64,000 nucleotides of DNA, taken from Isurus oxyrinchus (taxonomy: Eukaryota). The notes under the pieces were generated by a model. That model was not told the origin of the DNA. It searched no databases and saw only the letters and a program-made list of their open reading frames with translations. The translations under genes and the position numbers were made by a program. Position 1 is the first letter of the stretch. Each line of letters begins with the position of its first letter. Positions 37,367 through 37,627 of this stretch are shown piece by piece. Location: NCBI GenBank assembly GCA_026770705.1, contig JANJGN010000026.1:29946001-30010000 (forward strand), written 5' to 3'.

Positions 37367-37627
37367 CAGCTGTGACAGTCACCTCTGTCCCAGATCCGTC
37401 TACATAACCATCTTTCCAAACGGAACAACATGCATATTTATACTGAGCTTTGCAGTAATAGGTGGCCGTTAGAACCGAATCACAAAACGGGGTTAAGACT
37501 CCAGACAGTGTCCGTAATTGGGATGGACTCGGGCAGCTTTATCTTAATTCCACACAATATCGGTTTGTTTGATCGGTAGCCACGGGGTAAACAGGCACAC
37601 AGAGTAAAAAACAAACTAAATTCCCAT
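37367..37627 (-). pseudogene. Internally deleted copy of the germline-joined NAR-TCR VDJ
   Basis: TATYYCKAQYKYACCSVWKDGYVDGSGTEVTVTA|GT (37469-37367) fused to the leader intron; leader 37584-37627 has the same TAG. Confidence 0.88.

Follow-up and report, generated by a model that had tools for sequence, protein, structure and literature searches.

The locus raises the question of whether a V-D-J join found in genomic DNA was inherited through the germline and, if so, what a pre-joined V exon does among receptor segments that still rearrange. The window, by which we mean the whole stretch of 64,000 nt that was analysed, contains shark NAR-TCR cassettes, each with a leader, a NAR-type V, a D and a J and, beyond them, a supporting V-delta that carries a 23-RSS. 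The nearest named proteins are those of Carcharodon carcharias and Cetorhinus maximus, which makes a lamniform shark the probable source. Germline inheritance of the join is nearly certain. Our preferred reading, to which we give somewhat better than an even chance, is that the sequence at 37.4 kb is a pseudogene copy, shortened by deletion, of a V-D-J exon that was likely joined by RAG, and that the intact copies of this exon encode a fixed internal V domain.

The first-pass annotation had described two copies of one junction, with CDR3-J segments of equal length that differed by about four substitutions. Copy B (37367-37469) aligned to copy A (33518-33620) free of indels, with 4 substitutions in 103 bp (at 33537, 33556, 33578 and 33583), and the junction peptides of both copies agreed with the reading given there. 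The match is beyond chance (BLAST E 3e-51). The deletion that had been put at about 276 bp at TGGCCGT was found to be exactly 276 bp, flanked by 7-bp microhomologies. The intact copy carries this motif twice, at positions 33614 and 33890, with a spacing of 276 bp; the deleted copy has it only at 37463, having lost most of V together with its splice acceptor. Copy A is 345 nt long, has an open frame, an AG acceptor, a GTAAGT donor and phase 1-1, and carries one cysteine in FR1 and one in CDR3. The four copies previously listed for the window (33518, 37367, 59955 and 63804) were all present, but they are two distinct copies multiplied by a 26.4-kb repeat: 59955 compared with 33518, and 63804 compared with 37367, showed 0 differences over 103 bp.

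Table 1. Features of the window discussed in the text (positions are those of the window).
Feature	Position	Strand
Reference cassette: ordinary split NAR-TCR L-V-D-J	9330..10670	+
12/23 signal joint, 5' RSS of a D and RSS of a V-delta fused head to head	18813..18826	.
Open supporting V-delta exon with CDR1 Cys; 23-RSS at 29347	29348..29653	-
Copy A, intact germline-joined NAR-TCR V-D-J exon	33518..33862	-
Copy A dead leader exon, stop at codon 4; leader intron kept	34013..34055	-
Copy B, joined-exon remnant (FR3 end, CDR3, J, GT donor), pseudogene	37367..37469	-
7-bp microhomology at the 276-bp deletion	37463..37469	-
Copy B dead leader exon, stop at codon 4 and one extra base; lower bound approximate	37585..37627	-
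Unjoined J of the upstream cassette, 23-RSS and GT donor	40500..40552	-
Upstream NAR-TCR leader and V germline-joined to D	40933..41413	-
Copy A, second occurrence in the 26.4-kb repeat	59955..60299	-
Copy B, second occurrence in the 26.4-kb repeat	63804..63906	-

We searched the 4.98-Gb assembly with the junction pattern. It occurred at 28 places, 17 on the contig of the window and 11 on five small contigs, and the backwards control gave 0; some of the small-contig copies may be second haplotypes. Twenty copies are of type 1 (YKYGCGSVWKDG) and eight of type 2 (YRYRCGSTVSKD), which is three bases longer; the types otherwise align base for base. Each type formed a clade in the V tree (UFboot 100 for type 1 and 95 for type 2), with their sister relationship left unsettled. 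The similarity of the two junctions, which are separated by a 3-nt indel only, suggests that one ancestral join lies behind both. Among 57 longer homologues, four carried the junctions: three from the white shark (XP_041031384.1, with two junctions in tandem and then V-delta, XP_041031398.1 and XP_041031388.1) and one from the basking shark (XP_078393265.1). Therefore, type 2 is older than the split of the two shark families. The gene models of ten other genera in the same set lacked the junctions, an absence that counts for little. Many apparent joins in gene models of other sharks resembled RSS read-through and were excluded from the count. A search for homologues of near length returned six proteins, and the three examined were split V genes. 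The 28 diverged copies in the assembly, together with the same junctions in two other shark species, bear out the earlier claim of an old germline join.

Neither the leader intron nor the one that follows J has been lost, which rules out retroposition as the origin of the joined exon. Across the junction, the end of V is followed by a short segment resembling D and then by a J that is almost complete, and every RSS is gone; the joined exons are too diverged to show P nucleotides. The precise loss of the RSSs, the kept introns and a germline signal joint nearby suggest that RAG, acting in the germline, is the probable cause of the join. In that signal joint, the 12-RSS of a D and the 23-RSS of a V-delta meet heptamer to heptamer with zero bases between them, and the D, the J and the V-delta of one cassette were removed. 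The same fusion was found again on contig C242 (380216-380240), with flanks 87-90% identical, so that the two copies stand 11-13% apart. The signal joint thus has the form left by RAG and is an old germline mark, inherited and duplicated. The V-delta 23-RSS is also repeated three or more times in tandem units of about 62 bp (window 18820-19018 and 29040-29350).

By sequence, the joined exon belongs with NAR-type V domains. Its best PDB matches were VNARs (E 8e-21) with a Pfam V-set domain, and all 17 distinct open joined exons have the cysteine of the a-b loop (FR1) and are without the canonical tryptophan of WYRK. In the account available for shark NAR-TCR (PMC1845163), the V likewise has an FR1 (a-b loop) cysteine and no canonical WYR tryptophan, and its cassette stands before a V-delta with a CDR1 cysteine. 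Two features of a NAR-TCR V are missing from the joined exons, namely a leader of their own (dead in 25 of 28) and somatic V-D-J rearrangement.

The 28 copies form 18 clusters, each with one to three joined exons in a row. Within the DNA examined, an upstream NAR-TCR V..J cassette was found in 17 of the 18 clusters; in all 18, a V-delta or a fragment of one lies 3-4 kb beyond the last joined exon, with the CDR1 cysteine and the 23-RSS present where the exon was parsed. In four clusters three joined exons are stacked. The supporting V-delta at 29348-29653 lies 3,864 nt 3' of the donor of copy A. In the reference cassette, no joined exon intervenes before the V-delta at about 13.5-13.9 kb, and other sampled cassettes also have no fully joined exon, so both layouts coexist. 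The upstream V joined to D in the window has an open frame and an intact leader; the nonamer of its 12-RSS has decayed, and hence the window's own units may be silent.

Leaders and exons have fared differently. Of the 28 leaders 25 are dead, among them all 20 of type 1 and all four in the window, through a stop at codon 4 (14), a lost ATG (6), a lost donor (1) or deletion (4). A workable leader was kept in three of the eight type-2 copies. The joined exon of 345/348 nt, a target about eight times the size of the leader, is open in 19 of 28 copies, with splice sites. Of the nine broken exons, five are interrupted by a stop at the same codon, one has a frameshift and three carry the deletion of copy B. 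For the 17 distinct open exons, dN/dS was 0.61 (LRT 9.9 against 1). It was 0.54 (LRT 11.6) for their V part and 0.56 (LRT 6.3) for the 10 sequences of the stop-leader clade, and the value for CDR3-J (0.78, LRT 0.5) was indistinguishable from neutral. Comparatively, 16 split V exons gave 0.82 (LRT 1.5). In the stop-leader clade, about 13.6 frame breaks would be expected under neutrality and 1 was seen; the expectation is rough, being computed from nonsense and frameshift rates in the exon and its flanks with broken copies outside the tree and gene conversion ignored.

The condition of the exon also goes with that of its cluster. Where the leader and V of the upstream cassette are intact and V-delta is full length, as in nine clusters, the joined exons were open in 17 of 17 cases, and the 9 broken exons sit in clusters with a damaged upstream V, RSS or V-delta. 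This pattern is suggestive, since two of the nine V-delta frames were unparsed, some RSSs have substitutions and the clusters are kin; the copies are related and exchange sequence, so cluster counts are non-independent. The codon of the CDR3 cysteine is TGT in 28 of 28 copies, which is likewise only suggestive because CDR3-J did not differ from neutral.

Three runs, whose RNA status was guessed, gave four contigs on the exon; run X13 gave none. One contig of run X3 (depth 2) contains 119 nt of the joined exon, including the entire junction, shares its alleles with the copy at 30.056 Mb of the window's contig (C26), and passes directly into the start of the V-delta of the same cluster, in frame, across a 3,867-nt GT-AG intron. 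In a contig of run X2, the only assignable one on the acceptor side, a non-coding intronic exon is spliced to the acceptor of a stop-bearing copy, which means that splicing of the exon here also occurs in sterile transcripts. Together, these two contigs indicate that, across the exon family, acceptor and donor are both used. A splice from an upstream J to the joined exon was seen in 0 of the 4 contigs, which is not evidence of absence. The two contigs of run X1 have V alleles that match the stop-bearing joined lineage at 10 of 10 positions. Their upstream piece maps next to another cassette family and their 3' piece had no genome match; they could not be placed at a single locus and were excluded from the argument. 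An X1 contig at window 33592-33714 reads as a V end followed by a J-type RSS spacer and heptamer, and gave no genome match at up to 2 mismatches.

What could preserve an exon whose leader is dead? Such an exon can be translated only by way of an upstream exon, and if it is included the chain would have three or more V domains. The phases are compatible: the rearranged V-D-J upstream has a phase 1 end, and the joined exon, with consensus sites, is phase 1-1. The upstream rearranged J would then be spliced onto the joined exon, and the resulting chain would be NARV(rearranged)-NARV(fixed, x1-3)-Vdelta-Cdelta. A putative interdomain bridge between the FR1 cysteine of the NAR-TCR V and the CDR1 cysteine of V-delta has been proposed, as outlined in PMC1845163. 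CDR1 of the joined exon has no cysteine, so its CDR3 cysteine probably lacks a partner inside the domain. It may bond instead with the FR1 cysteine of the domain upstream, and the FR1 cysteine of the fixed domain may bond with the CDR1 cysteine of V-delta. The wider proposal, that lamniform TCR delta chains have three to five V domains, with a rearranged NAR V carried on one to three invariant joined NAR V stalks, locked by an FR1-to-CDR3 disulfide ladder, above the rearranged V-delta, and with RAG in the germline having produced the stalk exon and still leaving signal joints as its mark on the locus, is tentative, and we rate it a little short of even. A single-sequence fold of the predicted protein P0002 reached pLDDT 37 and was not used.

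Besides the sterile-type splice in the X2 contig, two observations count against an internal role: the workable leader in three of eight type-2 copies, and three predicted proteins from white and basking shark (P0002, P0004 and P0005) that fuse a leader straight to the joined exon and so give a two-V chain. The main rival, which we consider unlikely though the strongest of the alternatives, is that the joined exon is the N-terminal domain of a two-V NAR-TCR of fixed specificity, reached from its own leader or from that of the upstream cassette, and comparable to shark IgM1gj or the newt pre-joined TRD V-J. Besides the leader kept in 3 of 28 copies and the predicted models of leader, joined V and V-delta in two other sharks, a leaderless pre-joined TRD V-J of the newt appears to take the leader of a neighbour, in the portion of PMC12698447 that is available. 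Conservation of the frame and the X3 splice would be explained equally well. However, all 20 type-1 leaders are dead, and leader borrowing would have to bypass a V acceptor about 150 nt away in favour of one about 6 kb away. The CDR3 cysteine would probably be partnerless, as CDR1 has none, and the open stacks of three exons would be left unexplained.

A poorer alternative, to which we assign a small probability, is that the joined exons are decaying relics: former pre-joined genes that lost their leaders, are carried along in duplicated clusters, and are skipped or spliced in sterile transcripts. The 9 broken exons and 25 dead leaders among 28 copies would fit such decay, as would the sterile-type splice in the X2 contig and a mosaicism that reflects conversion among copies. 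It is opposed by the dN/dS of 0.56, below 1, after the leader stop arose, and by the single break where about 13.6 were expected. The V parts of type 1 form their own clade (UFboot 100), so they were not repaired from split V genes, which also speaks against relics.

A somatic rearrangement in lymphocyte DNA, or an assembly artefact, has almost no probability left and is already refuted as regards the join: the window's two 26.4-kb units, at 99-99.5% identity, could be haplotypes, but the 28 copies have diverged flanks and nested shared lesions, and the junctions recur in two other species. The earlier argument, that a diverged second copy shows a heritable join, was right about the germline; however, simple tandem duplication does not account for the pair, and its four differences do not date the join. 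In the 5' flank, B differs from A by 6-15 bases per 100 (about 12%), compared with 4 per 100 in the junction (binomial p 0.004 against 12%). The last 100-200 bp or so of B before the deletion are nearer to the copy at C26:30.056 Mb, 46 kb past the end of the window (3/100), than to A (13/100). B ceases to resemble A about 25 bases beyond the donor, and a B-type copy in the third unit has 97.6% identity to A that continues down to V-delta. Copy B is a mosaic pseudogene, otherwise ordinary. This pattern of flank and junction makes it likely that A and B were united by recombination between clusters, and the four differences therefore give the time of the most recent exchange and not that of the join.

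The offset of the 26.4-kb repeat is 26,437 bp, with 99.5% identity over 12.6 kb in the window and 99.0% over 35 kb when neighbouring DNA is included. It belongs to a NAR-TCR tandem array (window 24936-64000 and C26 to 30.06 Mb) of three units and a partial fourth, which are 0.5-3% apart; copy A is absent from one. Units 1 and 2 could be two haplotypes, which would explain at most two units.

Several known systems have parts of this arrangement. Marsupial V-mu-j of TCR-mu is also a germline-joined, invariant V exon 3' of a rearranging V-D-J, in repeated clusters and with a structural role, according to the sections of PMC7615758 at hand. There, V-mu-j is described as VH-like, as the C-proximal second domain and as thought to be retrotransposed, whereas the shark exon is NAR-type and has kept its introns. 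With a NAR-type V and a retained leader intron, the joined exon stands outside marsupial V-mu-j, which is VH-derived, retroposed and placed at the TRM locus. Moreover, the shark exon is an addition to a rearranging V-delta and does not replace it. A feature resembling V-mu-j, the 3' splice to the next domain exon, was observed in the one X3 contig.

In shark Ig, full and partial germline joins (IgM1gj, joined IgL, VD-J and VDJ clusters) appear in the excerpts of PMC4279169 and PMC5192425, and the corresponding parts of PMC2193156 and PMC5192425 ascribe them to RAG in germ cells. Those genes stand alone, each having a leader and a C of its own, unlike the mostly leader-dead exons of this TCR cassette; the text available from PMC5192425 calls such joins peculiar to Ig genes. 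The newt (Pleurodeles) TRD V-J is closer in locus, being pre-joined, leaderless, at the TCR delta locus and expressed there (PMC12698447, in the extract available). As far as that extract goes, it is a single conventional V, apparently using a neighbour's leader; it is neither NAR-type nor stacked on a second V.

As described in the accessible accounts, shark NAR-TCR has two V domains, both somatically joined, whereas at this locus they are separated by one to three additional NAR V exons that are pre-joined and mostly leader-dead. We found no report of a germline-joined NAR-TCR V in the literature searched, whose reach did not extend to the primary NAR-TCR papers. These reportedly deal with two-V cassettes of the nurse shark. 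If our reading is true, a multicopy, conserved and spliced pre-joined V in NAR-TCR would be an independent route to a known design and would raise the count of V domains possible in one TCR chain. The join and the old signal joint would be marks of germline RAG action at a TCR locus, dated by divergence, and would illustrate a route whereby a rearranging gene turns into a fixed part of a receptor.

Several independent germline joins of V to D only, with J still split, were also observed (L007-L010, L041-L043, L059, L061-L065 and L038). The one in the window (40933-41413) is shared with the basking shark model XP_078425937.1. A second stacking layout (C242, 406-548 kb; L046, L049 and L051) places a V-D-joined cassette after a split L-V-D-J; this cassette had no leader match and has its own split J. 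Finally, a Heterodontus francisci model (XP_067869961.1, P0003) contains a J, two NAR V with an identical junction that differs from those described here, and V-delta, and an independent germline join in the horn shark is possible.
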